A stretch of 56,972 nt of DNA, from the IMG/VR virus record IMGVR_UViG_3300022750_000015, positions 1-56,972 of that record; one strand, 5' to 3'. This document shows positions 4,061 to 18,712 of this stretch, in pieces. Source of the stretch: a virus (lineage: Duplodnaviria; Caudoviricetes). Numbering within the stretch: position 1 is the stretch's first letter; each line of letters opens with the position of its first letter. The position numbers were made by a program, and so were the translations under genes. The notes under the pieces are model-generated. The model made no database searches, had not been told where the DNA came from, and saw nothing but the letters and a program-made list of their open reading frames with translations.

Positions 4061-4249
4061 ATGAACGAGAACACTTTTATACTTACGCACATCAGTCAAT
4101 GGGTCATCAACTATAACACGATTATGACCGAGGCGAATATGTCGGAGTTTCACGAGCTACCAGCAAATAACCAAGAGATTATCCTACACAACGCCACACA
4201 AGAGGCGAAGTATTTGTGGAGTAAATTACCGGAATATCTAAAATCGTAA
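4061..4249 (+). CDS. Hypothetical protein
   Basis: 62 aa ORF in the operon. Confidence 0.6.
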   Translation: MNENTFILTHISQWVINYNTIMTEANMSEFHELPANNQEIILHNATQEAKYLWSKLPEYLKS

Positions 4250-4251
4250 TT

Positions 4252-4452
4252 ATGGAAAAACGCTACGTCATCACCATGCTGCTTCCGATAATAGAAGCAC
4301 CTACGCTCAAGCCATACGCCTTAATCCGAGTAAGCAAAAGAGCGTACCGCACTTTCGAGTTAGCAGAGAAAGCGCTGCTATCCAGTAAATCAATAGTACC
4401 CGGCAAAGCTTATAGCATTATGCCGGTTTATGTTAAACCAGTAAAGAAATAA
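4252..4452 (+). CDS. Hypothetical protein
   Basis: 66 aa ORF in the operon. Confidence 0.6.
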   Translation: MEKRYVITMLLPIIEAPTLKPYALIRVSKRAYRTFELAEKALLSSKSIVPGKAYSIMPVYVKPVKK

Positions 4453-4454
4453 TC

Positions 4455-4979
4455 ATGCAAAACGTAAAAGCAGAAAAACAAGAACCAGTTTCATTCGCAG
4501 GCATTCGCTTCGGCGATAAAGTAGATGTTTATGAATATCTACAGAAACACATTAAGCAGGATATCATAATCACGGGCAGTACAGCGCTCAAAGCCTATGG
4601 ATTAACTAACGAATCGGACGAATTTGATTTGGATCTTATCGTCCACAAGCCGACCGAAGAAACTCAGAAATTCTTTGATTTTTTAAGTTCGTTCTTTCCT
4701 GAGCACGAACACGAGAAAAGCTATATGAAACCCGATCGCTCGGACTTCGACATAGGTAAACTATCAATGTTCAGATTACTCGGGCCGGGTCAGCAAGACT
4801 TCAAGGTGCATATATTCTATAAAGATAAAGCGCAGCAGGTTACGCACTATAAATTCAGAGATAAGACGTATCCTATAGCACTACCTGGCGATATATTTTT
4901 AGCTAAGAAGCGTTTCGCTCGTCCGAAGGATTATCAGCAGTTAGGGGCTATCTGCGCTAAAATCTTAAAACCGGAATAA
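4455..4979 (+). CDS. Nucleotidyltransferase-fold (Pol beta superfamily) protein
   Basis: ITGSTAL...DLDL motif (GS + DxD) and late K..RPKD motif. Confidence 0.65.
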   Translation: MQNVKAEKQEPVSFAGIRFGDKVDVYEYLQKHIKQDIIITGSTALKAYGLTNESDEFDLDLIVHKPTEETQKFFDFLSSFFPEHEHEKSYMKPDRSDFDIGKLSMFRLLGPGQQDFKVHIFYKDKAQQVTHYKFRDKTYPIALPGDIFLAKKRFARPKDYQQLGAICAKILKPE

Positions 4980-5264: not shown

Positions 5265-7637
5265 ATGCAGCTAAACATTGCTACCGGTAAAGTATATAAA
5301 AGCCGTGAAACCAAAACGTGGAAGAACGTTACCATATCCTGGAAGGACTTAGTTAAAAAGCTATCGGTTACCATCCGAACGAACGAAAGCTATAAGCAGT
5401 ACTGCGCCTTCACGAAAGAGCAACAATCCGATATCAAGGACAAAGGCTCTTTCGTGGGTGGGTACCTGTTAGACGGCAAACGCTCACCGTCCACAGTAGA
5501 GTTCCGGCAACTGCTTACACTCGATATGGACTTAGCCTCGATCGATTTCTGGGACGAGTTCTGCATGTTCTACGGCTGCGAGGCCGTACTGCATAGCACA
5601 CATAAGCACTCTTCTAAAACACCGAGATACCGGTTAGTTATACCGCTTGACAGGACAGTAAACAGTACCGAATATCAGGCCATCTCCCGCAAGGTAGCAG
5701 CCGGATTAGGTATCAACCTGTTCGACCCGACTACCTGCCAACCGGAGCGCCTGATGTACTGGCCTACCAGTTCTAAAGACGGAGAGTTCGTATTCGAACA
5801 CCAAACGGGTAAACTGCTATCGGCTGATGCCATACTGGCGAAGTACCACGACTGGACTAACATCAGCGAATGGCCGATGTTCGAGGTCGAAAAGGACTTC
5901 ATGAAGCTGGGAGGTAAGCTACAGGGCGCACCGGCAGACAAGCCGGGACTCATAGGGGCGTTTAACCGGGCGTACTCCATCAGCGCGGCCATAGAAGCGT
6001 TCCTGAGCGACGTATACGAGCCGACGGCCAGCGAGGACAGATACACATACGTAGGCGGCTCGGGGGCATCAGGCGCTATAGTTTACGGACAGGACGAGTT
6101 CCTATACTCCCACCACGGCACTGACCCGATACACGGTAAGCTGGTTAACTCTTACGACCTGGTGCGTTTACATCTCTACGGGGGGCAGGACGGGGACGAG
6201 CGCGAACTGAGTAAGCAGAAGAGTAATAAGCTGATGGCTGATTTCGCCGCAGAGGACCCTAACGTAAGGGCCGAAGCCGGTAGCCGTAGGTTAGCATCAG
6301 ACGATTTCGACGTACTCGAAGAGACCGAATGGCTGAAAACCTTAAAGGTAGATAAGTTCGGTATGTACGAGGCTACGATACCTAACTTCTATACGATCAT
6401 CAGCAACGACCCCAATCTAAAGGGCAGATTAAAATACAACCTGTTTAGTCACCGGGCTATCGGTGTATTACCGTTACCCTGGAAGGATGGAACGGGCGAA
6501 ATAGAGCTGGCCGATCACGATAGCGCAGGATTGCGGATGTACCTCGAGAAGCGGTACCACATCCACCATATCGGTAAATTCGCCGACGGGGTGATGCGCG
6601 TGTTACACGATAACGCCTTTCACCCGATCAAGGAATACATAGACGGCATTACCTGGGACGGTAAATCGAGGCTGGATACCATGTACATAGATTACCTTGG
6701 GGCAGATGACAATAAGCTGAACCGGGAGATCACCCGCAAGGCTTTCGTGGCTGCAGTAGCCAGGGTGTACGTGCCCGGCATCAAATTCGATTACGTGTTG
6801 ACCTCCGTAGGACCCGAAGGTATAGGCAAAAGTACCATACTTGACCTCTTGGGTAAAGACTGGTTCTCAGATAGTTTTATGGGCGTAACGGGTAAAGAGG
6901 CGTTCGAGCAGCTGCAAGGTTCGTGGATCATCGAGATAGCGGAGCTGTCCGGCTTCAAGAAAAGCGAAGTGGAAGCAGTAAAGCATTTCATATCCAAAAG
7001 AGTAGACCGGTTCCGCGTAGCCTTCGGGCATATACCGGAGAGCTTCGCCAGGCAGTGCGCGTTCTTCGGCACCACCAATGAGTACGGTTTCCTTAAAGGC
7101 GCTACTGGTAACCGCCGGTTCTGGCCTATCGTCGTAACCGGCGTTACTTTCTACGACCTGAAGGAGTTGCCGGTAGATCAGATATGGGCCGAAGCCAAAT
7201 ACTATTTTGATCAGGGCGAGAGACTGTATCTCGACGCGGATTTCGAGCAAGAGGCAAGAGAGCTGCAAGCCGACCACACCGAGACAGACGACCGATCAGG
7301 ACCTATAACCGAATACCTGAATACCCTACTACCTATCGACTGGCCAACCATGGACGCATTCGAGCGACGCAGCTATTTAGGAGATCCGGCTATGATCGAA
7401 GAAAAGGGCGAAGTACAGCGGAAAACTGTATGTGTGCCTGAGCTATGGGTAGAGTTGTTTAAGGCGGAGTTAAAGGATATGGGGCCGCATAATACTAAAT
7501 ACATACATCAGATCATGGCCACAATACCAGGTTGGGAGAGGTCAGAAAGTAATTTAACGTTCCCGATATACGGTAAGCAAAGGGCTTATCTGTTAAGCGG
7601 TACAATTGTTAAGAAGAGAAAGGCGAAGAGGGTATGA
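5265..7637 (+). CDS. Primase-helicase, virulence-associated E (VapE/VirE) family
   Basis: N-terminal primase motifs (LTLDMD, HSTHKH, PRYRL); C-terminal SF3 helicase GPEGIGKST, WIIEIAEL, GTTN, TGNRRFWP. Confidence 0.92.
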   Translation: MQLNIATGKVYKSRETKTWKNVTISWKDLVKKLSVTIRTNESYKQYCAFTKEQQSDIKDKGSFVGGYLLDGKRSPSTVEFRQLLTLDMDLASIDFWDEFCMFYGCEAVLHSTHKHSSKTPRYRLVIPLDRTVNSTEYQAISRKVAAGLGINLFDPTTCQPERLMYWPTSSKDGEFVFEHQTGKLLSADAILAKYHDWTNISEWPMFEVEKDFMKLGGKLQGAPADKPGLIGAFNRAYSISAAIEAFLSDVYEPTASEDRYTYVGGSGASGAIVYGQDEFLYSHHGTDPIHGKLVNSYDLVRLHLYGGQDGDERELSKQKSNKLMADFAAEDPNVRAEAGSRRLASDDFDVLEETEWLKTLKVDKFGMYEATIPNFYTIISNDPNLKGRLKYNLFSHRAIGVLPLPWKDGTGEIELADHDSAGLRMYLEKRYHIHHIGKFADGVMRVLHDNAFHPIKEYIDGITWDGKSRLDTMYIDYLGADDNKLNREITRKAFVAAVARVYVPGIKFDYVLTSVGPEGIGKSTILDLLGKDWFSDSFMGVTGKEAFEQLQGSWIIEIAELSGFKKSEVEAVKHFISKRVDRFRVAFGHIPESFARQCAFFGTTNEYGFLKGATGNRRFWPIVVTGVTFYDLKELPVDQIWAEAKYYFDQGERLYLDADFEQEARELQADHTETDDRSGPITEYLNTLLPIDWPTMDAFERRSYLGDPAMIEEKGEVQRKTVCVPELWVELFKAELKDMGPHNTKYIHQIMATIPGWERSESNLTFPIYGKQRAYLLSGTIVKKRKAKRV

Positions 7638-8419
7638 GGGATTTATTGAATACTATCCATACAGCCGATTGCAATTTGTTTATGAGCGATCTGCCCGAAG
7701 CCTGTATCGATCTTACCGTTACTTCACCGCCTTATGATAAATTAAGAGTTTATAACGGTTTCTCCTTCGACGTAGATTTAGTAATTAAGAACCTTTACCG
7801 GATAACTAAAAAAGGCGGTATAGTAGTTTGGGTTGTTTCTGATCAAACGGTTAAAGGCTCTGAATCGGGTACCTCTTTCCGAACCGCTTTAAAGTTTATG
7901 GAGATTGGTTTCAATTTACATGACACTATGATATACGCAAAGAAAAATTTTATACCTCAAACCCATAACAGATATGAGCAAGAGTTCGAGTATATGTTTG
8001 TGTTTAGCAAAGGTAAGCCAAACACTTTTAGCCCTTTAAAAGTACCAGCTAAAACCGCAGGACAGACAATGAAATTAGGTCAAAAAGGCTACGGGTTTAA
8101 AGAGGGGTCTTTTAGAAGAAGGCATGAAGAGATTACTACAGGTGAAAATAAAACGCCAGGCAATATATTTTATTACGCTTGTGGTTCAAGTGGCAAAAAC
8201 CACCCGGCTGTTTTCCCCGCAGCTTTGGCGGCGGATCACATTAAAACGTGGACTAATCCTCTTGATATAGTATTCGACCCGTTCAGCGGAAGCGGAACGA
8301 CTTGCGAAGAGGCTAAAAGATTAAGCCGGTGGCATTTAGGATGCGATATCAGCGCACAGTACGTTAAAGAAAGTAACGAATCTTTAGCTAATATAGACTC
8401 CATATTCGATATCCTATGA
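7634..8419 (+). CDS. DNA amino-methyltransferase (N4-cytosine/N6-adenine family, beta class)
   Basis: TSPPY catalytic motif, HPAVFP, DPFSGSGTT SAM-binding motif. Confidence 0.92.
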   Translation: MRDLLNTIHTADCNLFMSDLPEACIDLTVTSPPYDKLRVYNGFSFDVDLVIKNLYRITKKGGIVVWVVSDQTVKGSESGTSFRTALKFMEIGFNLHDTMIYAKKNFIPQTHNRYEQEFEYMFVFSKGKPNTFSPLKVPAKTAGQTMKLGQKGYGFKEGSFRRRHEEITTGENKTPGNIFYYACGSSGKNHPAVFPAALAADHIKTWTNPLDIVFDPFSGSGTTCEEAKRLSRWHLGCDISAQYVKESNESLANIDSIFDIL

Positions 8420-8694
8420 GAGAATCCTTCATAGAAGCCAAACTCCGTAAAGCCATACAGGCTCTCGGCGGTATCTGTATTAAGTTCACCTCCCCCGGCA
8501 GCATGGACGGTGTACCAGACCGGATCATCCTGTTACCCGGCGGTAGAATATACTTTGTAGAAACTAAATCGCCTGCGGGCAAGCTTTCGGCCATTCAGCG
8601 ATTCGTTCATAAGACGTTCGCTAAGCTGGGGTTCCCCGTGCGCGTAATCGGTACTTTGGAAGAGTTGGCAGCATTTATAAATGAGATAAAATAA
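8416..8694 (+). CDS. VRR-NUC domain nuclease
   Basis: E..IE...GVPDRI...FVETK..GKLS..Q pattern; canonical position before SNF2. Confidence 0.9.
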   Translation: MRESFIEAKLRKAIQALGGICIKFTSPGSMDGVPDRIILLPGGRIYFVETKSPAGKLSAIQRFVHKTFAKLGFPVRVIGTLEELAAFINEIK

Positions 8695-9980
8695 TGAACG
8701 TCCTATCCCTATTTGATGGAATGTCGGGAGGCCGAATAGCCCTCGAACGCGCCGGTATTCCCGTTACTAACTACTTCGCCTCCGAGATAGATAAGCATGC
8801 TATCAAAGTTTCGAAAGCCAATTGGCCGGATATCAAATATATCGGTTCGGTCGTATACGTTGATATATCGTACGACGCGGCTACCGATACCTCCCGCATA
8901 TATAACTGGTTAACGGGAGAGGACTTTACTTTTAAAGGTAGGATCGATCTGATTATCGGCGGTTCGCCATGCCAGGGCTTTAGTTTCGCAGGTAAGCAAC
9001 TGAATTTTAACGACCCAAGAAGTAAACTGTTCTTTGAGTTCGTCAGGTTGAAAAAGCAGACGGGGGCTACTTGGTTCTTTTTGGAGAATGTGAAAATGGC
9101 TAAGGCTTCGGAAGAGGTTATATCGGAGTATATGGGGGTACAACCTATCAGGCTAAACAGTGCTTTAGTTAGCGCGCAAACTCGTAAACGCCTATATTGG
9201 ACTAACATACCCTACTTCGGGCCTCCTGAGGATAGGGGGATATTTCTAAAAGATATACTACTTACGGATATTGACCCTAAATACATATTATCTCAAGAAG
9301 CTGTAGACTACATGTGCAGAGAGGTAAAAGGAGGCCGAAACCATTGGGATTTTCACCACCACCACGATTCTGCTAATGAAAAAAGCAGTTGCATAACCGC
9401 TGCTATATCTAAAGGAGTTCCATATAACGTACTTATAGATAGAAATCCTACATTACGGGTTAGAGAAGCTACGAAAATCGGATACTGCGAAGTAAAACCC
9501 GGAGAATGTTTCGACAATACGTTGCCGAGCAGTAAAACCCGAAGAGGTAGATATATGGGCGATAAAGCCAATTGTTTAACAGCTACTAATTTTCAATATT
9601 ATCAATACTTAGGCAAAGTCGCGTCTACTTTTGAGAGAATGACCGCTCGTGAATTTGGTATAAATATAAATGAAAGCGGAGATTTCAGACCCCATAAGCT
9701 CGATGGTAGAAAAAGCGGAATCAGTGAAATAGGAACACTTCGAAACGAGAATAATAAAGGACTTACGTTAATATCTTCGCACGTACCGGTAGTATACACT
9801 GAAAACCCATTTTTAATACGTCGACTAACAGAAATTGAATGTGAGCGATTGCAAAATGTACCCGATGATTACACTATAGAGGCTTCTGGGACTCAAAGAT
9901 ATCGTATGCTCGGTAACGGTTGGGAGTGTAACACAATTACCTATCTGTTTAAACCTCTGCAAATAGCCGATATCCTATGA
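8694..9980 (+). CDS. DNA cytosine-5 methyltransferase
   Basis: LSLFDG, GGSPCQ, ENV, Q.RKRLYW, RRLT..ECERLQ, GNGW motifs. Confidence 0.93.
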   Translation: MNVLSLFDGMSGGRIALERAGIPVTNYFASEIDKHAIKVSKANWPDIKYIGSVVYVDISYDAATDTSRIYNWLTGEDFTFKGRIDLIIGGSPCQGFSFAGKQLNFNDPRSKLFFEFVRLKKQTGATWFFLENVKMAKASEEVISEYMGVQPIRLNSALVSAQTRKRLYWTNIPYFGPPEDRGIFLKDILLTDIDPKYILSQEAVDYMCREVKGGRNHWDFHHHHDSANEKSSCITAAISKGVPYNVLIDRNPTLRVREATKIGYCEVKPGECFDNTLPSSKTRRGRYMGDKANCLTATNFQYYQYLGKVASTFERMTAREFGININESGDFRPHKLDGRKSGISEIGTLRNENNKGLTLISSHVPVVYTENPFLIRRLTEIECERLQNVPDDYTIEASGTQRYRMLGNGWECNTITYLFKPLQIADIL

Positions 9981-11314
9981 AGTTCACTCCCCTCCGACAT
10001 CAGCAAATCGCATTAGACTTCTCATTAACCCGGCAAACGTCCGGGCTTTTTTTGGATATGGGCCTCGGTAAAACAGTCACCACCCTTTCACTGCTTAACA
10101 TCCTGATCAACAGCTTCTCGGTAGATAAACCCCTGATCATAGGCCCTAAGTTCGTAGCCGAAGATACCTGGCCGAAGGAGATAGCCAAATGGGATCACAC
10201 TAAACATATCACGTATGCCGTTATCACCGGTTCGGTACAGGAGCGTTTAGCCGCGCTCCGGGCTAAGGTAGATGTACACATACTGAACATCGAGCATTTA
10301 GCCTGGCTGGTAGACCTCAAACGGTTTAAGACCCGATGGCCGTTCGATATGCTGGTCGTGGACGAACTGAGTAAATTCAAATCGTCTGACAGCATACGGT
10401 TCAGGAAACTAAGAAAAGTACTACCTCAGGTACCCCGCTTGATCGGCCTTACCGGTACACCTATACCCAACGGCATGCTTGACCTCTGGGCGCAGGTATT
10501 CATTCTGGACCGGGGCAAACGCCTGTTTCCTACCGTGACCACATACCGTATGCACTACTTCCATCCGGAGAAAAAGCTGATACACGGCGGATGCACGTAC
10601 GGCATTAATCCGGGAGCCGAAGAGCTGATCTACGAAAAGATAGATGACTTATGCCTCAGCATGAAAGCGGTAGACTGGCTGCAGTTACCCGAACGGCAGG
10701 ATATCATACGGGAGATTGAATTACCCGACTTATCGGAGTATAAGCAGTTCAAGCGCGATAAAATACTGGAACTGGCCGAAGGTGATATAACCGCGTTCAA
10801 TGCGCCGGCGCTGTATAACAAGCTGCTGCAATACGCTAACGGGGCGGTGTACGATTCGGATAAGAAGTATCACGTTGTACACGACCTGAAGCTGGAAGCA
10901 CTGGCCGAAGCAGTAGAAGAGTTGCAAGGCAAACCTGTTATTATCGCGTATCAGTTCCAGTCCGACGTGGATAGGATCAAAAAGCGGATACCACAAGCTG
11001 TACAGCTAAAGAAGAACAGCCAGATCACCGAGTGGAATAAAGGCAAGATACCCGTTATGCTTGGGCATGCGGCCGGTATAGGCCACGGGCTAAACCTGCA
11101 ATACGGCGGACACTACATATTCTGGTACGGCGTAAGCGCTAACATGGGCGACTATTGGCAACTCGTTAAACGCCTGGACAGGCAGGGGCAGAAATTCACC
11201 GTATTTAATTATCACTTTTTGGTAAAGGGTACGGCGGAACACAGTGTGTACCGGTCAATACAGAGCAAGACTTTAACGCAGGACAGGCTGATGGATGCTT
11301 TGCGGAAATATTAA
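9977..11314 (+). CDS. SNF2-family (SF2) helicase
   Basis: DMGLGKT, DELS, LTGTP, GHGLNLQ, RLDRQGQ motifs. Confidence 0.92.
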   Translation: MKFTPLRHQQIALDFSLTRQTSGLFLDMGLGKTVTTLSLLNILINSFSVDKPLIIGPKFVAEDTWPKEIAKWDHTKHITYAVITGSVQERLAALRAKVDVHILNIEHLAWLVDLKRFKTRWPFDMLVVDELSKFKSSDSIRFRKLRKVLPQVPRLIGLTGTPIPNGMLDLWAQVFILDRGKRLFPTVTTYRMHYFHPEKKLIHGGCTYGINPGAEELIYEKIDDLCLSMKAVDWLQLPERQDIIREIELPDLSEYKQFKRDKILELAEGDITAFNAPALYNKLLQYANGAVYDSDKKYHVVHDLKLEALAEAVEELQGKPVIIAYQFQSDVDRIKKRIPQAVQLKKNSQITEWNKGKIPVMLGHAAGIGHGLNLQYGGHYIFWYGVSANMGDYWQLVKRLDRQGQKFTVFNYHFLVKGTAEHSVYRSIQSKTLTQDRLMDALRKY

Positions 11315-12054
11315 AGTATATCGCTTAATAAGCGATTTATGATTCGCTTATTAGCTTTACCGTACATTTCTTTATCTTTTTCTATCAGTATGTAATTACG
11401 GTTTGTATTTAAGCAAGCTATACCAACGGTACCAGAACCGCTACAATTGTCTAAAACAGTCATACCTTCATCCGTATAGGTTTTTATGAAATACTCTTCT
11501 AAAGCAACAGGTTTTTGCGTAGGGTGTACAGCACCGCTTTGTTTATCCGATTTCATTTTAATAACCGAACGTGGGTATCTTTCGTCCGAATCGTAATCGG
11601 CTAAACCATGTTCTCCGTAATTAGTAGTCTTTTTACAATTTATTTTGTGTTTGGCTAAACTAACTTTCCTTTCGTGACCTTGCGTCTTTTGCGGATTATA
11701 AACAGGTTTACCTTTATAAAAAACTAATATCTGCTCATGCGCCCGCATAGGCATCTTCTTTGCGTTCAAGTGACCAGAAGCGGATGTTTTTTCCCAAATC
11801 CAATCATATCTATACACATCGGGGTTACTCATAATTAGTTTCGCAGCAAATAAGCCTACGGCGTTCAGCAGGATTACGCCGTTAGGAGATATAATACGTT
11901 CGTATTGCTCCCACAAAGGTCCGAAAGGGATTATAACATCCCATTTATTACGAGTAGTACCGTAAGGTAAATCCGCTTTTATTAAATGCACAGAATTTGA
12001 GGGTATATCGGTCATTACTTCTAAGCAATCCCCGTGAATGTGTCTATTTAGCAT
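11311..12054 (-). CDS. DNA adenine (N6)/amino-methyltransferase, beta class
   Basis: DLPY, HPTQKP, LDNCSGSGT motifs. Confidence 0.9.
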   Translation of the reverse strand: MLNRHIHGDCLEVMTDIPSNSVHLIKADLPYGTTRNKWDVIIPFGPLWEQYERIISPNGVILLNAVGLFAAKLIMSNPDVYRYDWIWEKTSASGHLNAKKMPMRAHEQILVFYKGKPVYNPQKTQGHERKVSLAKHKINCKKTTNYGEHGLADYDSDERYPRSVIKMKSDKQSGAVHPTQKPVALEEYFIKTYTDEGMTVLDNCSGSGTVGIACLNTNRNYILIEKDKEMYGKANKRIINRLLSDIL

Positions 12055-14054
12055 CAGTCCTTACGATAATACGTGTTTTCAAAACCTTCGGCATTTAAAG
12101 GTAAACCGTCCATCCACTTAACAGGTTTAATCATCAGGTCATTTACCTCGTCTATCCCGCTTTCGCCTATAGGCATCTCGCACACAACCTCGTCATGTAT
12201 GTGTAACACGGTTTGAATGCCCCAGCTATCGAGGTTAAGCAGCGCGTTAGCTAAACAGTCCCTGGCAATTGCTTGCACCGCATTTTCTACAAGCTTGCCG
12301 CCGTATGTATCAAGTCGCATCCATTTGTTCACTTTCTGGTTTACACCGTAGTACTCTACCGCGCTACCTCCGAACTTACCGGGCTTTAGCCGAGCACCAT
12401 AGTAGCATAAACGCCTACCGGATGGTAACTGCATCAGTAGATAACCGTTCTTGTAATCAAACGTAAGTCCTCTATCTACATTAACCAAACGCTCACCTCT
12501 GTAGGTTTGTTCTGCTACAGATGTTTTACGGCCATTGGCTATAGCATAAACAGCGGCTTGCTGCACGGCTCTCCACAATCTTACTATACAAGGGTTAGCC
12601 AAACGCCAGGCTTCTACGATAGGGTCGAGTTCGTCTACTTCTAAACCCATATCTAATGCCCCCATAGCTATTAGCGCATTAGCCCCGCCCTGGTAACCTA
12701 AAGCCAAAACTGATACCTTACCGCGCTGCCGGTCGTCTTTAGTGATATCCTCAATAGCTTTCTTAAACATCTGCGCGGCTGTAGCCTTATACACGTCTCC
12801 GTTATGCTTAAACACGTCAAGCAACCACTTCTCACCAGCCAACCACGCAATAACACGGGCCTCAATGGCCGAGAAGTCAGATACGATAAACCGTTTTCCC
12901 TCTTCAGCAACAAACGTTGTACGTATCAGCTGAGACAGCGTATCGGGCACAGGGCCATATATCATCTCGAGCATATCCTTATCGCCGCCAATAGCCAGGT
13001 TACGTGCTACTTCCAGCAGCTCACCATGATATTTACCGCGCGGCAGGTTCTGCGTTTGAACTAAGCGCCCAGCCCATCTACCGGTACGGTTAGCGCCGTA
13101 TATCTGGTGAAGCCCACGGATCCGGTGATCTACACATGCACTTTTTAGCATAGCTGCATATTTCGATACCGATGTTTTAGATAGTTCCTGCCTGATGGCC
13201 AGTATGCGTTTAGATACATCGCCTTTACACTTAAGTAGGATAAGCGGAATACTGGCTTTCTTCAGGTTATCGATCTCGATATCCTCTTCGATCTCAAGCC
13301 ACTTCTTTACCTGGGCGATACTATTAGGCTTCACAATACCCGATATGCGTATGGCCTCAGCCGTAAGGATATCTTTATACTCCCGGTCCATCCGGATAGC
13401 ATTCTCTACCATGGTCATATTCACTTTTACACCATGGCTGTTTATCTTTAGGTCAAGATCCCATAGCTTTTTCTCCAAAGGCATGATAGGCAACCACTCT
13501 ATGGCTTTAGCTTCGGCCATCTCGGCTGCAACGTCCACTTTACAGTAGTGTATGAACTGCTGCCACTTGTCGGGAGTATGTGTAGGCAGGTTACGGGTAC
13601 GCATCTCGTTAGCCTTGGTAGGTTTACACGGTATGCAAAAATAGCGTATGAGTACCATACCCATCGTCTCTTTCTTAACAGCTACGTTCAGTGCTCTGGT
13701 TGCACCGTCCAGGCTAAGCGGTAAACCGGCCATGGCCACTTTCCACTGAGAGCAGTACCACTGATCAGGGATAAGCTTGATACCAAAGTAGGCCTCGATC
13801 ATCAATATCTCGAACGGCGCATTATGAGCACGTTTTTGTACGCCGGGGTGTGTAAGGGCGCGGTACAGTTTCGCCGGTATCTGTTCTTTACGAGGCAGAT
13901 GCCGAACCGCCCACAGGTCGATAACCTGCGGCTCTTCGCCGTTGAAGCTATAGCCGAATAAGAGTATCTCTACTTGTTCACTGTACTTATACGCCCCGGC
14001 TTTCTTAAGGTCAATAGGCGAATAAGTCTCTAAGTCGATGTTTAGGATTTGCAT
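12054..14054 (-). CDS. DNA polymerase, family A (APSE-like)
   Basis: DLETYS exonuclease motif, RTGRW, DFSAIEAR, RQRGK..LALGY, HIHDE. Confidence 0.95.
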   Translation of the reverse strand: MQILNIDLETYSPIDLKKAGAYKYSEQVEILLFGYSFNGEEPQVIDLWAVRHLPRKEQIPAKLYRALTHPGVQKRAHNAPFEILMIEAYFGIKLIPDQWYCSQWKVAMAGLPLSLDGATRALNVAVKKETMGMVLIRYFCIPCKPTKANEMRTRNLPTHTPDKWQQFIHYCKVDVAAEMAEAKAIEWLPIMPLEKKLWDLDLKINSHGVKVNMTMVENAIRMDREYKDILTAEAIRISGIVKPNSIAQVKKWLEIEEDIEIDNLKKASIPLILLKCKGDVSKRILAIRQELSKTSVSKYAAMLKSACVDHRIRGLHQIYGANRTGRWAGRLVQTQNLPRGKYHGELLEVARNLAIGGDKDMLEMIYGPVPDTLSQLIRTTFVAEEGKRFIVSDFSAIEARVIAWLAGEKWLLDVFKHNGDVYKATAAQMFKKAIEDITKDDRQRGKVSVLALGYQGGANALIAMGALDMGLEVDELDPIVEAWRLANPCIVRLWRAVQQAAVYAIANGRKTSVAEQTYRGERLVNVDRGLTFDYKNGYLLMQLPSGRRLCYYGARLKPGKFGGSAVEYYGVNQKVNKWMRLDTYGGKLVENAVQAIARDCLANALLNLDSWGIQTVLHIHDEVVCEMPIGESGIDEVNDLMIKPVKWMDGLPLNAEGFENTYYRKD

Positions 14055-14294
14055 TTATTGCGGAGTGTTTAAAGCTTTTATTAGAGCATCAGCCATATCT
14101 ACCGCTAATTTGGCGGTTTGTTCCGGCTCATTAGGTCTTATAAAAGTATGATCACTAGCTATACCTTGCATAGCTTTAGCGGCGAAATATTCCCGCTTGG
14201 TCAGCCCATCCCTTTCGGTTTTAGCGATTTTAACTTGTCCATCGTCCAACGAATAGAAAGTATTGTTGATTGAATCATTAGGTTTTGTTTCCAT
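14055..14294 (-). CDS. Conserved phage hypothetical protein
   Basis: GLTKREYFAAKAMQG...ADALI motif common in phages. Confidence 0.75.
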   Translation of the reverse strand: METKPNDSINNTFYSLDDGQVKIAKTERDGLTKREYFAAKAMQGIASDHTFIRPNEPEQTAKLAVDMADALIKALNTPQ

Positions 14295-14320
14295 AATCTA
14301 TTAGGTTAAAAGTTATTAAT

Positions 14321-14854
14321 TTATAATATATCGTAAATTAAGCCGAAACGGCATTTAAATTTTTCTTCATTACGGATATCAACTCCGTTGACATTTCGGT
14401 ACATCCACCCTTTAGGGGCGGTGCATACGGTTTTAAAACCTAATTTATCTCCGGCTTTTAAACCCGCTTCATCTACGCCCGTTTGTCCTCCGCTGATAAA
14501 GCTCTCTATATCCATAAAGTAAGTTAAATCTCGTAATATTCCTAACACCCAACTATCTATACCTGGTTGCCCTAATACGCCTTTAAACGTATATAAACCG
14601 TTACCCGCTATATTAAGCGTCTTAACATTTAAAGCAATAAGGTTCTCTCTGATTTGATCTAAAGTTCTATCAGTGTAATAATTGAAGTCAATTCGGAAAT
14701 AGGGCTTCTTTAATTTGTCGCAATAGTTACGTGTACAAATCTCCCCTCCTGTTTTAAAGTCAATAGCCAAAGCTAAAGTTGCATCAGACGAATTGACGTT
14801 ATGGAGAGTGCGGCCTGAATAGCCGTAGCTGCTATGCTCCTTAAAATAAATCAT
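14321..14854 (-). CDS. SLOG-superfamily (YpsA / 'molybdenum carrier'-like) protein
   Basis: RT..NV..SDATL, LNIAGN, ISGGQTGVDEAGL, APKGW. Confidence 0.8.
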   Translation of the reverse strand: MIYFKEHSSYGYSGRTLHNVNSSDATLALAIDFKTGGEICTRNYCDKLKKPYFRIDFNYYTDRTLDQIRENLIALNVKTLNIAGNGLYTFKGVLGQPGIDSWVLGILRDLTYFMDIESFISGGQTGVDEAGLKAGDKLGFKTVCTAPKGWMYRNVNGVDIRNEEKFKCRFGLIYDIL

Positions 14855-14881
14855 ACGCTAAGCCGAAACGGCATTTAAATT
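14339..14881. repeat. 23-bp direct repeat at the 3' ends of the two SLOG genes
   Basis: taagccgaaacggcatttaaatt at 14339-14361 and 14859-14881. Confidence 0.85.
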
Positions 14882-15353
14882 CACTCTCATTCTTAATTAC
14901 TTTACCAGCATCATTACGATAAGCCCAAAAGCTTTCGGCCGTACAAACAGTTTTGATGCCGTGCTTATCTCCGAATTTCAACCCAGCCTCTCCGGCCCCC
15001 GACTGACCGTCACTTCTGATCATCAGCGGTTTCTGATAGATGAACGCCGTCTTAAGGAAATAGCGTACGTAATCATCTATCGCTGGCTGTAGCCTGGTAG
15101 TCTTAAAGTCGTAAGCAGTACTACCAGTAATGTTGATTACTTTTACTTCATACCGGCGGATAAGCTTTTGCAAAGCCGCAAACTCTTGTATATTGTAGTA
15201 TGCCACTTTGCTGATATCTACATTATGATGAACTTTAGCAGCAGTAGCGAAATCACCGGATGCAGAAAAACTGAGGGTCATATCAGAGTGTTCGATGTTT
15301 TGCTGCTGAGCACTGTCGAATTGTTCGTGGTCGAATAGGTCGAAGCGAATCAT
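14841..15353 (-). CDS. Divergent SLOG paralogue
   Basis: NI..SDMTL, INITG, SDGQSGAGEAGLK; C-terminus FKCRFGL shared with 14321..14854; ATG at 15353. Confidence 0.7.
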   Translation of the reverse strand: MIRFDLFDHEQFDSAQQQNIEHSDMTLSFSASGDFATAAKVHHNVDISKVAYYNIQEFAALQKLIRRYEVKVINITGSTAYDFKTTRLQPAIDDYVRYFLKTAFIYQKPLMIRSDGQSGAGEAGLKFGDKHGIKTVCTAESFWAYRNDAGKVIKNESEFKCRFGLAYDLF

Positions 15354-15583
15354 ATACCGGTTAACCAATTTATAAATACCTCTTTAACAACTAATAAACA
15401 CTCTTCTTCGCTGTTGCACTCATTTACTGAGTCGCTTATATTTTTCGAATAAACTCACCAAGTGCCGAGAGTTTCTGATTTATTGTAAGTGGCTATAAGC
15501 AAGCCATTGTAGAAAATACTCTTTTTACCTTTCGGCGCTCTGTCGGGGGTAAATAGTAAATCGAAGTCTAAACTATGAAGCAT
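15350..15583 (-). pseudogene. 77-codon reading frame interrupted by one in-frame TGA
   Basis: MLHSL...LGTW*VYSK...WLTGI*; internal TGA at 15457-15455; final TGA overlaps the ATG of the next gene. Confidence 0.6.
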
Positions 15584-16252: not shown

Positions 16253-17428
16253 ATGCCGGGCGCTCACGCTATACTGCCTGCTTCTGCTTCAAAGCGCTGG
16301 CTCCGTTGCACACGGGCACCGCGCTTTGAGATGGAGTTTGCTGAAAGCGAATCTACCTACGCCCAGGAGGGTACATTAGCCCACGCCATAGGCGAAGAGA
16401 TGCTACGGCAGCGTAGCCGTGAGCTAACTCCTAAAATACTTAATAAGGTACTTCGTGAACAAGCGCCTCTCAAAGAGTATTATAACCCGGAGATGAAGCG
16501 GTACTGCGAAGAGTACGCGAATTATGTAGTAGACAGAGTGACACCTGCATCCAGGCTGATTGTCGAGCATAGGCTCGATACAAGCAGCCACGTACCGGAG
16601 GGGTTCGGTACAATGGATGCAGGTGTTATTACTCCTTCGGGTAGAAGGGTTTACACTCTTGAAACCTTCGACCTCAAATACGGCAAAGGCGTTCCGGTGT
16701 ACGCCGAAGAGAACGAGCAAGCTATGATATACGCTATCGGCGTATTGAACGATTTCGGATGGATATACCCTATTACGCATATCCGTATGCACATATTCCA
16801 GCCACGTATCAACAATATAACCGAGTGGGAGATCAGTGTAGCCGACTTGTTAGCGTGGGGTGAAGAGGTGTTAAAGCCTCAGGCCCGTTTAGCTTTCGAC
16901 GGTGAAGGCGAGTTCGTACCGGGTGAACATTGCGGATTCTGTAAAGCCAAACCACTATGCCGCGCTTTAGCTGCGTACAATTTGGAATTGGCCGCACAAG
17001 AGTTCGAGAATTACTCTAACCTGGTAGAGCCGGCAGAACTGACGGAGGCCGAACTGCTAAAGATTTACGACAACAGGAAACTTTTTGAGGGGTGGATAAA
17101 CGCCATAGACGAATATGTCCTGAAACAGGCCCTAATGGGTAAAAAGTGGAAAGGCTATAAAGTAGTTGAAGGCCGGGCATACCGCTCTTACAGAAGTGTA
17201 CCTATACTCAAAAGAGCTTTAGAGCGGGAAGGCATTACGGATATCTATAAACCGCAAGAAATACTCGGCTTAGGCGATATGGAAACGCTCGTAGGTAAAG
17301 AAGTATTCAGCAAGGTGGTGGCACCATTATTGACCAAACCTAAAGGTAAGCCTACCTTAGTACCGGTATCGGATAACAGGCAGGAATTTAATTCAGCATT
17401 AACAGATTTTACAAATTTAGACGAATAG
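16253..17428 (+). CDS. DUF2800 Cas4-like PD-(D/E)xK exonuclease
   Basis: HA.L.AS...RW..C, EGTLAH, GT.D, DLKYGKG, C.FC...C cluster. Confidence 0.9.
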   Translation: MPGAHAILPASASKRWLRCTRAPRFEMEFAESESTYAQEGTLAHAIGEEMLRQRSRELTPKILNKVLREQAPLKEYYNPEMKRYCEEYANYVVDRVTPASRLIVEHRLDTSSHVPEGFGTMDAGVITPSGRRVYTLETFDLKYGKGVPVYAEENEQAMIYAIGVLNDFGWIYPITHIRMHIFQPRINNITEWEISVADLLAWGEEVLKPQARLAFDGEGEFVPGEHCGFCKAKPLCRALAAYNLELAAQEFENYSNLVEPAELTEAELLKIYDNRKLFEGWINAIDEYVLKQALMGKKWKGYKVVEGRAYRSYRSVPILKRALEREGITDIYKPQEILGLGDMETLVGKEVFSKVVAPLLTKPKGKPTLVPVSDNRQEFNSALTDFTNLDE

Positions 17429-17432
17429 TATT

Positions 17433-18023
17433 ATGCCAAACATCATTTTAAGAAATGTGCGTATTTCCTATGCAGCCTTGTTAGAACCGAAACCGGACGA
17501 TAAAGGTAACCTGAAATACGGCACAATGATTATTATCAATAAAAAGGATAAGGTCAACATCAAAGCGCTGGAAGATGCCATTCAGCAAGCCTACACCGAG
17601 GGTAAAGGTGCCATGAACATGAAGCCCGAGAAAGTACCGGCTGCATCCATCTCGTTCAAAGTGTGTAAACGCGACGGTGACACCGACAGGCCGGACGATC
17701 CGAATGTGGAAGGCTGCTTTTTCCTGAACGCTAACTCTAACAGTAAGCCTCAGGTAGTGGACCGTGACCCCCGTGTACTTATAGTGGATCCGAACGAAGT
17801 GTATTCCGGTATGTGGGTGAATATCTCATTAACCATTAAACACTTTATCGCGGATGGCGGTAAATCTAAAGGTATCACCGCTTACCTGGGCAACGTTCAG
17901 AAGGTAAAAGACGATACCCGTTTCGACGGCCGCAAGTCGGCCGATCGGGAGTTCGAGGAGTTGGAGCCATACGAAGATTTGGACAACGAGTCGGAGGATG
18001 ACGAGGACGATATGGGTTTTTAA
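17433..18023 (+). CDS. DUF2815 single-stranded DNA-binding protein
   Basis: VRISY, RDGD, VYSG, LGNVQK; acidic tail ending DDMGF. Confidence 0.9.
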   Translation: MPNIILRNVRISYAALLEPKPDDKGNLKYGTMIIINKKDKVNIKALEDAIQQAYTEGKGAMNMKPEKVPAASISFKVCKRDGDTDRPDDPNVEGCFFLNANSNSKPQVVDRDPRVLIVDPNEVYSGMWVNISLTIKHFIADGGKSKGITAYLGNVQKVKDDTRFDGRKSADREFEELEPYEDLDNESEDDEDDMGF

Positions 18024-18081: not shown

Positions 18082-18378
18082 ATGGAGCAAACAATTAGAC
18101 TACTCGAAAACGAGATAGCCAAAAAGAAAAGAACCTTAAGACAGTTAGAAGCAGCTAAAACAGAATACTTAGATGCGGCTATAGAGACTCAAACCGGTAT
18201 AAACAGAGAGTCAGAAGATTTATACCCACTTGAGCGACAGTTGGAGCAGATGTACTCGAAGTACCCTAAGGTAGAGCCACAAAAAAGTGAAGATTCCCGA
18301 AAGGATACGACACCTCGTACTAAAGCATCACCTAACAGATTGAGCAGATATCCCCCTTTAGATGACGACGATTTATAA
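18082..18378 (+). CDS. Coiled-coil hypothetical protein with acidic tail
   Basis: 98 aa, ends PPLDDDDL. Confidence 0.7.
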   Translation: MEQTIRLLENEIAKKKRTLRQLEAAKTEYLDAAIETQTGINRESEDLYPLERQLEQMYSKYPKVEPQKSEDSRKDTTPRTKASPNRLSRYPPLDDDDL

Positions 18379-18412: not shown

Positions 18413-18712
18413 TTAAACACTCCAATACCAATCTTCCCAAACCGCTGTATGCATAGCAGCTTCTTTACACACGCTGCAACTGACCGAGCCAGCGCATATC
18501 GGATCGTCTATCTTCTGATAGTGCGCGTACAGTAAAGGTTCTCTCGCCTCGGTGGTTAAATGCGCCCACTGTCTTTGTGTATGCCAATATACTATCCTAC
18601 CGGATGCCGTTTCATAAATTATATCGCCCCGGCTATCGCACACATGGTCGCGGCCGTCTATGAAAGCCAGCCCTTGGCCAACCTGTATAATAGCTGATTT
18701 AGAATTATGCAT
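18413..18712 (-). CDS. Hypothetical protein, possibly Zn-binding
   Basis: 99 aa; HVC and CSVC motifs. Confidence 0.65.
   Translation of the reverse strand: MHNSKSAIIQVGQGLAFIDGRDHVCDSRGDIIYETASGRIVYWHTQRQWAHLTTEAREPLLYAHYQKIDDPICAGSVSCSVCKEAAMHTAVWEDWYWSV

Follow-up and report, generated by a model that had tools for sequence, protein, structure and literature searches.

Organization of the locus

The 57-kb virus record IMGVR_UViG_3300022750_000015 (56,972 nucleotides; Duplodnaviria, Caudoviricetes), referred to here at its full length as the window, represents the genome of a tailed phage, in whole or in large part, and its minus strand carries the genes for terminase, portal, protease, major head protein, tail sheath, and tape measure. 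Its replication region codes for five accessory proteins, DNA methyltransferases (MTases) and SLOG-domain proteins, that share the ending D-[IL]-[LF] at the extreme C-terminus, referred to below as the tag. N6/N4 DNA methyltransferase 1 (MTase-1; positions 7634 to 8419, plus strand, 261 amino acids [aa]) matches PF01555 over residues 25 to 248 (138.4 bits; gathering cutoff, 26.7) and ends in ...NIDSIFDIL, with the DIL codons at 8408 to 8416 and a stop codon at 8417 to 8419 that overlaps the ATG of the next gene. The C5 cytosine DNA methyltransferase (8694 to 9980, plus strand, 428 aa; PF00145, 139.4 bits; cutoff, 22) has the tail ...YLFKPLQIADIL, ending in QIADIL (DIL codons at 9969 to 9977). 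N6/N4 DNA methyltransferase 2 (MTase-2; 11311 to 12054, minus strand, 247 aa; PF01555 over residues 22 to 234, 92.3 bits; cutoff, 26.7) ends in ...INRLLSDIL, with the DIL codons at 11314 to 11322. These are followed by cpYpsA SLOG protein 1 (SLOG-1; 14321 to 14854, minus strand, 177 aa; PF12694, 63.1 bits; cutoff, 26.2), which ends in ...CRFGLIYDIL (DIL codons at 14324 to 14332), and by the cpYpsA-like SLOG protein 2 (SLOG-2; 14841 to 15368, minus strand, 175 aa), which ends in ...CRFGLAYDLF. The PF12694 match of SLOG-2 is weak (17.6 bits, under the 26.2 cutoff), but it aligns to SLOG-1 at 38% identity and retains the GQ[TS]G and RFG motifs.

The tag is encoded by GAT ATC CTA twice, by GAT ATA CTT and GAT ATA TTA once each, and in SLOG-2 by GAT TTA TTT, and a C directly precedes all four of the DIL codon triplets. 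The genes for MTase-1 and the C5 MTase have identical last 13 bases, CGATATCCTATGA, and a stop codon that overlaps the next start codon as ATGA (8414 to 8419 and 9975 to 9980); this common ending is judged to be a side effect of the shared peptide combined with the overlap. The five termini (four DIL and one DLF), the DIL codons, and the placement of the genes on both strands agree with a first-pass annotation of the window, as does its statement that no structural or early gene ends in DIL: none of the other 79 of the 84 open reading frames (ORFs) ends in DIL or D[IL][LF].

Frequency of the ending

The window has 84 nonoverlapping ORFs with a length of 50 aa or more, of which four end in DIL and five in D[IL][LF]. 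Of its 17,816 tripeptide positions, 8 are DIL, and four of these 8 are C-terminal, compared with 0.038 terminal cases expected; the probability of four or more is 7.6e-8, and that of five terminal D[IL][LF] is 2.7e-7. When 84 termini were drawn at random 20,000 times from internal tripeptides, only 2 draws contained 4 copies of one and the same tripeptide, whichever it was. The enrichment against random termini for which the first-pass annotation had proposed a test is thus confirmed, at a P of about 1e-7. Because SLOG-1 and SLOG-2 are paralogues, the five window proteins represent at most four independent cases.

Related phages with the same ending

The tag recurs in a small clade of relatives whose family A DNA polymerases (PolA) are 40 to 48% identical to that of the window (12054 to 14054, minus strand, 666 aa). 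The IMG/VR locus L001 has a PolA 40 to 45% identical and an MTase about 65% identical to those of the window, in the same PolA-MTase-SNF2 order, and five of its ORFs end in DIL: an SSB (single-stranded DNA-binding protein) of the T7 type (...EFEEDDIL), an N6_N4 MTase, a phrog_757 methyltransferase, a cpYpsA SLOG protein, and an HNH endonuclease. A second contig (L349/L519) also has five DIL ORFs, coding for a C5 MTase, a SLOG protein, a DnaQ-like "polymerase exonuclease subunit," a 56-aa protein, and a truncated HNH-like protein. On a third contig (L354) the C5 MTase and the N6_N4 MTase end in DLL and an HNH endonuclease ends in DFL, and the fourth (L517), of which 1.3 kb was read, codes for a SLOG protein ending in ...YDVTDIL. 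Two further methyltransferases, one of the D12 class in L001 (7159 to 7908; ...FCNTIL) and one of the Dam family in L517 (167 to 586; ...IFNNIL), have I-L endings without the Asp, which may be weaker versions of the tag.

The tag is therefore not a feature of one genome, and the comparison with sister phages extends it to further unrelated DNA enzymes, the families so far being methyltransferases (at least four families), cpYpsA SLOG proteins, HNH endonucleases, a DnaQ-like exonuclease, and a T7-type SSB. Over the window and its relatives, Asp is encoded by GAT or GAC, Ile by ATC, ATA, or ATT, and Leu by CTA, CTT, or TTA, and the stop codon is TGA, TAA, or TAG. The variation in codons and stops, with genes on both strands, points to selection on the peptide, as the first-pass annotation had claimed in reading the conservation as protein level. 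As judged from these C-termini, the tag is shown to be lineage specific and common to at least eight DNA-acting protein families.

The ending is rare elsewhere. In 512 loci outside the clade (its four loci left out), DIL ends none of 7,575 ORFs and D[IL][LF] ends nine. Another 80 phage loci that share the PolA module (PolA 44 to 51% identical by tblastn) served as controls, and none of these has three ORFs with identical last three residues. Three or more ORFs with the same last three residues are found in only three lineages among the 312 loci with at least 10 ORFs, these being L001 and L363 (one contig; DIL), L035, L036, and L039 (RLF), and L397 (AAA). SLOG genes are likewise concentrated in the clade, being present in each of the four loci of the DIL clade (3 contigs) and in none of the 80 controls, which supports the proposal that the tag links the SLOG proteins to the MTases.

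Further searches did not enlarge the clade. There is no megablast match to the window in the phage collection, no close PolA was found in IMG/VR with a single-protein query, and a metagenome scan with the MTase alignment gave identities of at most 58% and no new clade member. A tblastn search of the phage collection with P0016 gave no match of at least 60% identity (best listed, 49.5%), and L349 and L354 are not among the matches listed in a metagenome scan with the C5 MTase.

The tag as an addition to the protein folds

The first-pass annotation had suggested that accessory enzymes were retrofitted with the tag, and a comparison of homologue C-termini bears this out: in all three enzyme families the majority of homologues end where the domain does, and an extension of 6 to 11 residues ending in D-[IL]-[LIF] is confined to small subclades. 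For MTase-1, the PF01555 match extends only to residue 248 of the 261, and solved structures can be aligned only as far as residues 252 to 254, leaving 7 to 13 residues beyond the Pfam and PDB homology. Five of its best 120 homologues end in DIL (window protein counted), the nearest others end in DLL, DVI, DAI, EAI, or FDL, and the remainder differ. The core of the SLOG family ends in ...F[KL]xRF and most of the best 120 homologues stop 0 to 3 residues beyond it, but one subclade has the extension RFG..Y..., with DIL in 7 (window's own counted) and DLL in 3 of the 120 and other endings of EML, ELY, ALY, TLF, or NDI. Similarly, most of 120 C5 MTase homologues end in ...HIF.GLK, and a subclade adds [LF]F.PL..., with DIL in 4 (window's own counted), DLL in 2, and DII in 1. 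DIL is absent from all 150 representatives of the MTase-2 family. The broader class [DE][ILMVF][LIFMY]-COOH is enriched 5- to 13-fold over its internal rate in the MTase-1, SLOG, and C5 homologue sets. The DIL tail is thus shown, by alignment, as a peptide appended beyond the catalytic fold and absent from most homologues. Other DIL-ending database proteins are known as single proteins (P0002, P0008, P0041, P0130, P0133, P0165, P0183, P0186, P0414, P0463, and P0493).

The SLOG alignment also matches IMG/VR loci of unusual layout. In L321 to L348, the closest cpYpsA matches lie inside giant ORFs, with 4 to 16 ORFs spanning 20 kb under genetic code table 11; these giant ORFs look like the "polyvalent proteins" reportedly described by Iyer et al. 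in 2017. An alternative genetic code was considered for the SLOG-bearing loci with few ORFs and is rejected for most, as table 11 ORFs cover more than 90% and are giant. Eight others (L361, L362, L364, L365, L368, L376, L386, and L390) have a table 11 ORF coverage of 0 to 61%, which is higher with TAA or TAG readthrough, and their low coverage may reflect stop codon reassignment or poor ORF calling.

Replication module and host

The tagged genes are interspersed with and followed by genes of the replication module. A primase-helicase (5265 to 7637, plus strand, 790 aa; phrog_256 and phrog_9765) precedes MTase-1, and a VRR-NUC nuclease (8416 to 8694, plus strand, 92 aa) and an SNF2 helicase (9977 to 11314, plus strand, 445 aa), both identified by Pfam, are replication-module genes without the tag. 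The PolA is about 49% identical to those of Brevibacillus, Bacillus SPO2, and Clostridioides phages. Downstream, a PD-(D/E)XK-type exonuclease (DUF2800-like; 16253 to 17428, plus strand, 391 aa; phrog_69) is a core gene of the module, with one present in 70 of the 80 control loci, and is followed by an SSB of the T7 gp2.5 (Enc34/DUF2815) type (17433 to 18023, plus strand, 196 aa; PF10991, E = 3e-45) with the acidic tail ...NESEDDEDDMGF.

Two small ORFs follow the SSB gene. The one just downstream of it (18082 to 18378, plus strand, 98 aa) has no family match and ends in ...PPLDDDDL, an acidic, hydrophobic-tipped tail of the SSB kind. The other (18413 to 18712, minus strand, 99 aa) has no Pfam or PHROG family and is 59% identical to an L001 ORF, an identity that exceeds that of most shared genes; it is present in 0 of the 80 controls. 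No phage-encoded clamp was recognized among the ORFs scanned against Pfam or PHROGs (some small ORFs lay outside the scan).

Shine-Dalgarno-like sequences are found upstream of only 7 of the 84 window ORFs, and they are also scarce in the DIL-clade relatives (5/34, 3/22, and 1/31 ORFs) compared with a control-locus median of 42%. This scarcity is the sole basis for the assignment of a host, and suggests one that is Bacteroidota-like. The tail sheath protein has no match at an E value of 1e-10 or below across 301 Bacteroidota genomes.

Resemblance to SSB tails

Most SSBs in the control loci (55 of 69) end in acidic residues followed by a hydrophobic tip, [DE][DE]-hydrophobic-hydrophobic-(x), such as DDDFLS, DDDDLI, or DDDDLM. 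The L001 SSB tip (...EEDDIL) is the same as the tag, and that of L519 (...DDDIM; the SSB tail of the L349/L519 contig) is near it. All five window tails, and all DIL, DLL, and DFL tails of L001, L349/L519, and L354, similarly place a hydrophobic C-terminal residue after one or more acidic residues.

SSB-type tails are also present on other proteins: the control loci have 16 among 1,648 non-SSB ORFs, versus 9 among 3,255 ORFs elsewhere (odds ratio, 3.5; P = 0.002), and the 16 carriers comprise six MTases (with tails such as FDDLLL, FDELLG, and FEEMMK), one exonuclease, eight small ORFs without assigned function, and the primase-helicase of L283. In L283 (5478 to 7430 region; primase-helicase at 10616 to 13051), this primase-helicase (...REEDLI) and the T7-type SSB (...DDDDLI) share the tip DLI, and L318 and L320 each have two ORFs ending in DLI, one of which is the SSB. 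L265 has acidic, hydrophobic-tipped tails on its SSB (4170 to 4727; ...DDMDGMV), on a 107-aa ORF just upstream of PolA (9681 to 10004; ...FDDDMSGLI), and on an exonuclease (5886 to 7064; ...DDDASDLV), and this tail type is near that of the window SSB (...DDMGF).

In phage T7, the acidic tail of gp2.5, which has a Phe tip, docks on the DNA polymerase, as does that of gp4, and gp4 and gp2.5 share a tip arrangement; the C-terminal Phe of the T7 tail is reportedly essential, going by the titles of two papers. The excerpted text of one study describes the gp2.5 tail as disordered and acidic and in contact with both polymerase and primase-helicase, and reports that in a crystal of the Enc34 SSB the tail sits on the concave beta-sheet surface of a neighboring molecule (PMC5686142); an excerpt of another places the gp2.5 tail on the front basic patch of the polymerase (PMC12339929). 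This patch cannot be placed on the window PolA, for which PDB homology spans only residues ~368 to 477. A complex prediction of the window PolA (77-sequence alignment) with the last 32 residues of MTase-1 scored 0.00 in two runs without controls and is no evidence either way.

Comparison with clamp-binding motifs

The beta-clamp motif QL[SD]LF, reportedly set out by Dalrymple in 2001, was the other model offered by the first-pass annotation for a docking tag. The window tails have its hydrophobic pair at positions 4 and 5 after S or D (DIL four times and DLF once), but Gln plus an aliphatic residue at positions 1 and 2 is not found in IFDIL, IADIL, LSDIL, IYDIL, or AYDLF, and the sole Gln is at position -6, in QIADIL. 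In Bacteroidota DinB proteins, the C-terminus has a canonical motif of the QL or QM type (QLxLF, QLxFxF, or QMxLxF) in 18 of 28 and a D[IL][LF] ending in 0 of 28, a comparison in which the host phylum is itself taken from the scarce Shine-Dalgarno sites alone. With no Gln-Leu and a position always at the very end of the protein, DIL itself appears to be a poor clamp motif. The SSB-tail version of the docking analogy has thus gained from the L001 (DDIL) and L519 (DDIM) SSBs, and the clamp version is weakened by the DinB tails.

Clamp-type tails are nevertheless probably carried by many MTases of phages and other mobile elements, because Q..[LIMF]F is enriched in MTase homologues and two further groups of MTases have related endings. 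Within the last 10 residues, Q..[LIMF]F is present in 18 of 120 MTase-1 homologues (0.75 expected) and 9 of 150 MTase-2 homologues (0.27 expected). L035, L036, and L039 each have four ORFs ending in TQ[QE]RLF that code for N6_N4 MTases (Pfam checked for three in L036); this is a second, independent instance of one phage with a shared C-terminal tag, which here has the appearance of a canonical clamp-binding motif. In L036 the four ORFs are adjacent (8226 to 9191, 9314 to 10267, 10279 to 11043, and 11088 to 11735), three matching PF01555 and the fourth being a query-matched MTase homologue, and a 174-aa ORF without a Pfam family (7422 to 7946) ends in ...ETQQRFM. The second group consists of N6_N4 MTase homologues, mostly from Bacteroidota, Ignavibacteria, and Chlorobi assemblies, with the endings ...N[ND]LF, ...KDLF, or ...HNLF, to which 0 to 6 residues are added, and their tail looks clamp-motif-like and characteristic of the group (genome contigs with NDLF-like MTase tails are L083, L089 to L092, L094, L095, L100, L103, L108, L110 to L112, L115, L123, and L135).

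A proposed docking motif modelled on the SSB tail and its alternatives

It is about an even chance that D-[IL]-[LF]-COOH is a lineage-specific docking motif, modelled on the tip of the SSB tail, that recruits accessory DNA enzymes to a hub of the replisome. A clade of PolA-encoding phages, probably with Bacteroidota-like hosts, would have appended the motif to unrelated accessory enzymes as a minimal copy of the tip of the acidic C-terminal SSB tail. The tagged enzymes would thereby dock in the pocket of the receptor for the SSB tail, and methylation, together with SLOG, HNH, and exonuclease activities, would be focused on the replication forks of the phage. Phage PolA is the likeliest receptor and the primase-helicase the next, PolA being favored because the tails of T7 gp2.5 and gp4 dock on DNA polymerase.

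Several observations weigh against this proposal. The SSB of the window itself ends in ...DDMGF rather than DIL, and that of L354 in ...DDYVM; the client tails have one Asp (two in ...WEDIL), with the acidic run confined to the SSBs; and the six acidic-tailed MTases of the control phages fall into about two lineages. The receptor is placed by analogy alone, two of the five tag carriers of the window are the paralogues SLOG-1 and SLOG-2, and the clade is known from five contigs. At the position of the tag, a sister SLOG protein (...VYNTLF) and a sister C5 MTase (...GYNFLF) have nonacidic, clamp-like ends (P0122 and P0418, which may share one contig, as both have a longest contig of 14,740 nucleotides), and the YDLF end of SLOG-2 in the window is also clamp-like.

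These last tails bear on an unlikely but substantial alternative, that the tag is a degenerate motif for the host beta-clamp (positions 3 to 5 of QL[SD]LF) with which the enzymes ride DnaN clamps left on new DNA, as DNMT1 does on PCNA. Both DLF and DIL match these positions, Q..[LIMF]F is strongly overrepresented among the homologues of both N6_N4 MTases, and the TQ[QE]RLF and ...N[ND]LF(xxx) MTases described above point in the same direction, as do the YNTLF and YNFLF tails of the sister SLOG and C5 proteins; a DnaQ-like exonuclease is among the tag carriers, and Escherichia coli epsilon binds the clamp. However, Bacteroidota DinB tails are canonical and none has D[IL][LF], four of the five window tails lack Gln, and DIL is strictly terminal, whereas the clamp motifs of the homologues allow 1 to 4 trailing residues. 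The tagged SSB of L001 also fits poorly, as SSB tails are not known clamp ligands, and these phages have their own polymerase, primase-helicase, and SSB. It is rather less probable that the partner of the tag is a different phage component, such as the SSB OB-fold groove that accommodates the tail of the SSB itself, the SLOG protein, or a clade-specific unannotated small protein. The Enc34 SSB tail seated on the beta-sheet of its neighbor, as an excerpt of that study reports (PMC5686142), offers a precedent for the groove, and both SLOG (4/4 clade loci versus 0/80 controls) and the 99-aa ORF conserved in L001 and absent from controls are candidates by distribution, but their co-occurrence may be mere shared ancestry in three to five contigs, SLOG is itself a tag carrier, and the 99-aa ORF has no assigned function.

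Two further readings do not involve docking at all. A C-terminal degron, by which a host or phage protease would shorten the life of potentially harmful DNA enzymes, would account for the strictly C-terminal position and hydrophobic end, as in degrons of the ssrA type, and for clients that are nucleases and methyltransferases potentially toxic in excess. It is improbable in view of the tag on the SSB of L001, an abundant structural replication protein, and of the likeness of the tip to an SSB tail that is conserved throughout the module and is an interaction motif in T7; moreover, no protease is linked to the region. That there is no functional peptide, and that the ending reflects chance, a fold-determined terminus, or a DNA-level signal at gene junctions such as a stop/start overlap, is very improbable and already largely ruled out by the homologue, statistical, and codon evidence. 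The shared 13-base ending with its ATGA overlap and the C before all four DIL triplets would suit a DNA signal, but three of the five window genes have no ATGA overlap, and neither the codons nor the stop codons nor the downstream contexts are uniform across the window and its relatives; a P of about 1e-7 argues against chance, and the lack of the tail in most homologues argues against the fold.

Relation to known docking peptides

Docking peptides common to several replisome proteins are already well known and include clamp motifs, SSB tips, T7 tails, and, according to a review, the clamp-binding tails of T4 (PMC9690074). The tails of T7 gp2.5 and gp4 are the nearest parallel, with an acidic and hydrophobic motif at the extreme C-terminus of several proteins of one phage. 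The window phage also has a family A polymerase and an SSB of the gp2.5 structural type, as described for that type (PMC5686142), the L001 SSB carries the exact tag, and the SSB and primase-helicase of L283 share DLI. Unlike those of T7, the carriers here are mainly accessory enzymes (MTases, SLOG, HNH, and exonuclease) and not core replisome proteins, the tag has a single Asp and ends in Leu instead of Phe, the window SSB ends in MGF, and PolA binding is putative.

The beta-clamp motif (QL[SD]LF or QLxLxL) is likewise a short and often C-terminal peptide by which unrelated DNA enzymes bind one hub, its last three positions fit DLF and DIL, and many of the homologous MTases have a canonical-looking QxxLF tail; it differs in that most DIL tails have no Gln-Leu at positions 1 and 2, that DIL is strictly terminal, and that Bacteroidota DinB tails are unlike DIL. 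The C-terminal tip of bacterial SSB (...DDDIPF) binds many genome maintenance proteins, and has the same acidic-hydrophobic free C-terminus and logic of hub and client, but with the direction reversed, as here many clients bear the tip for one putative receptor, and DIL has no Pro-Phe. Neighboring ORF pairs with a bacterial-SSB-like tip (...DDIPF, ...NDIPF, or ...EEVPF), one ORF of 257 to 296 aa and the other of about 510 to 524 aa, are present in L440 (15612 to 16418 and 16422 to 17996), L449 (8399 to 9172 and 9175 to 10707), and L468 (15596 to 16486 and 16560 to 18089). The PCNA-interacting peptide of DNMT1, as that review describes it, also tethers a DNA methyltransferase to the replication machinery by a short peptide (PMC9690074), but the hub, motif, and domain of life are different and the DNMT1 motif is not C-terminal.

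A search of the full-text literature, which covers few subscription journals, found no paper on a replisome-docking tail in any methyltransferase of bacteria or phages, and only the eukaryotic DNMT1-PCNA case turned up. No shared tag on SLOG, HNH, and MTase proteins turned up in this methyltransferase-directed search, and no search was aimed at such a tag.

To judge from the tails compared here, a peptide resembling a clamp motif or an SSB tail is a very common ending in MTases of phages and other mobile elements. A tentative generalization is that phages tether DNA-modifying and DNA-cutting accessory enzymes to the fork by interchangeable C-terminal "address" peptides suited to the replisome in use, which would be SSB-tail-like in those with their own T7-like PolA/SSB replisome (D-I-L-COOH as a minimal form in this clade) and QxxLF in those using the host replisome. 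Viruses would then have their own version of the coupling between DNMT1 and PCNA, and replisome clients, the enigmatic cpYpsA SLOG proteins among them, could be listed from sequence. Viral YpsA-like SLOG domains have been proposed, in the excerpted text of one study, to degrade cADPR-like immune signals (PMC9503650); a tag that directs SLOG to the fork would suggest, instead or additionally, a role in replication aimed at DNA or nucleotides. Should the tag prove to be a docking peptide, it would show how a phage couples protective methylation and SLOG, HNH, and DnaQ-like exonuclease activities to its own replication, its three-residue signature would flag fork-acting proteins, including those without assigned function, and there would be one pocket whose blockade would disable many accessory functions together.

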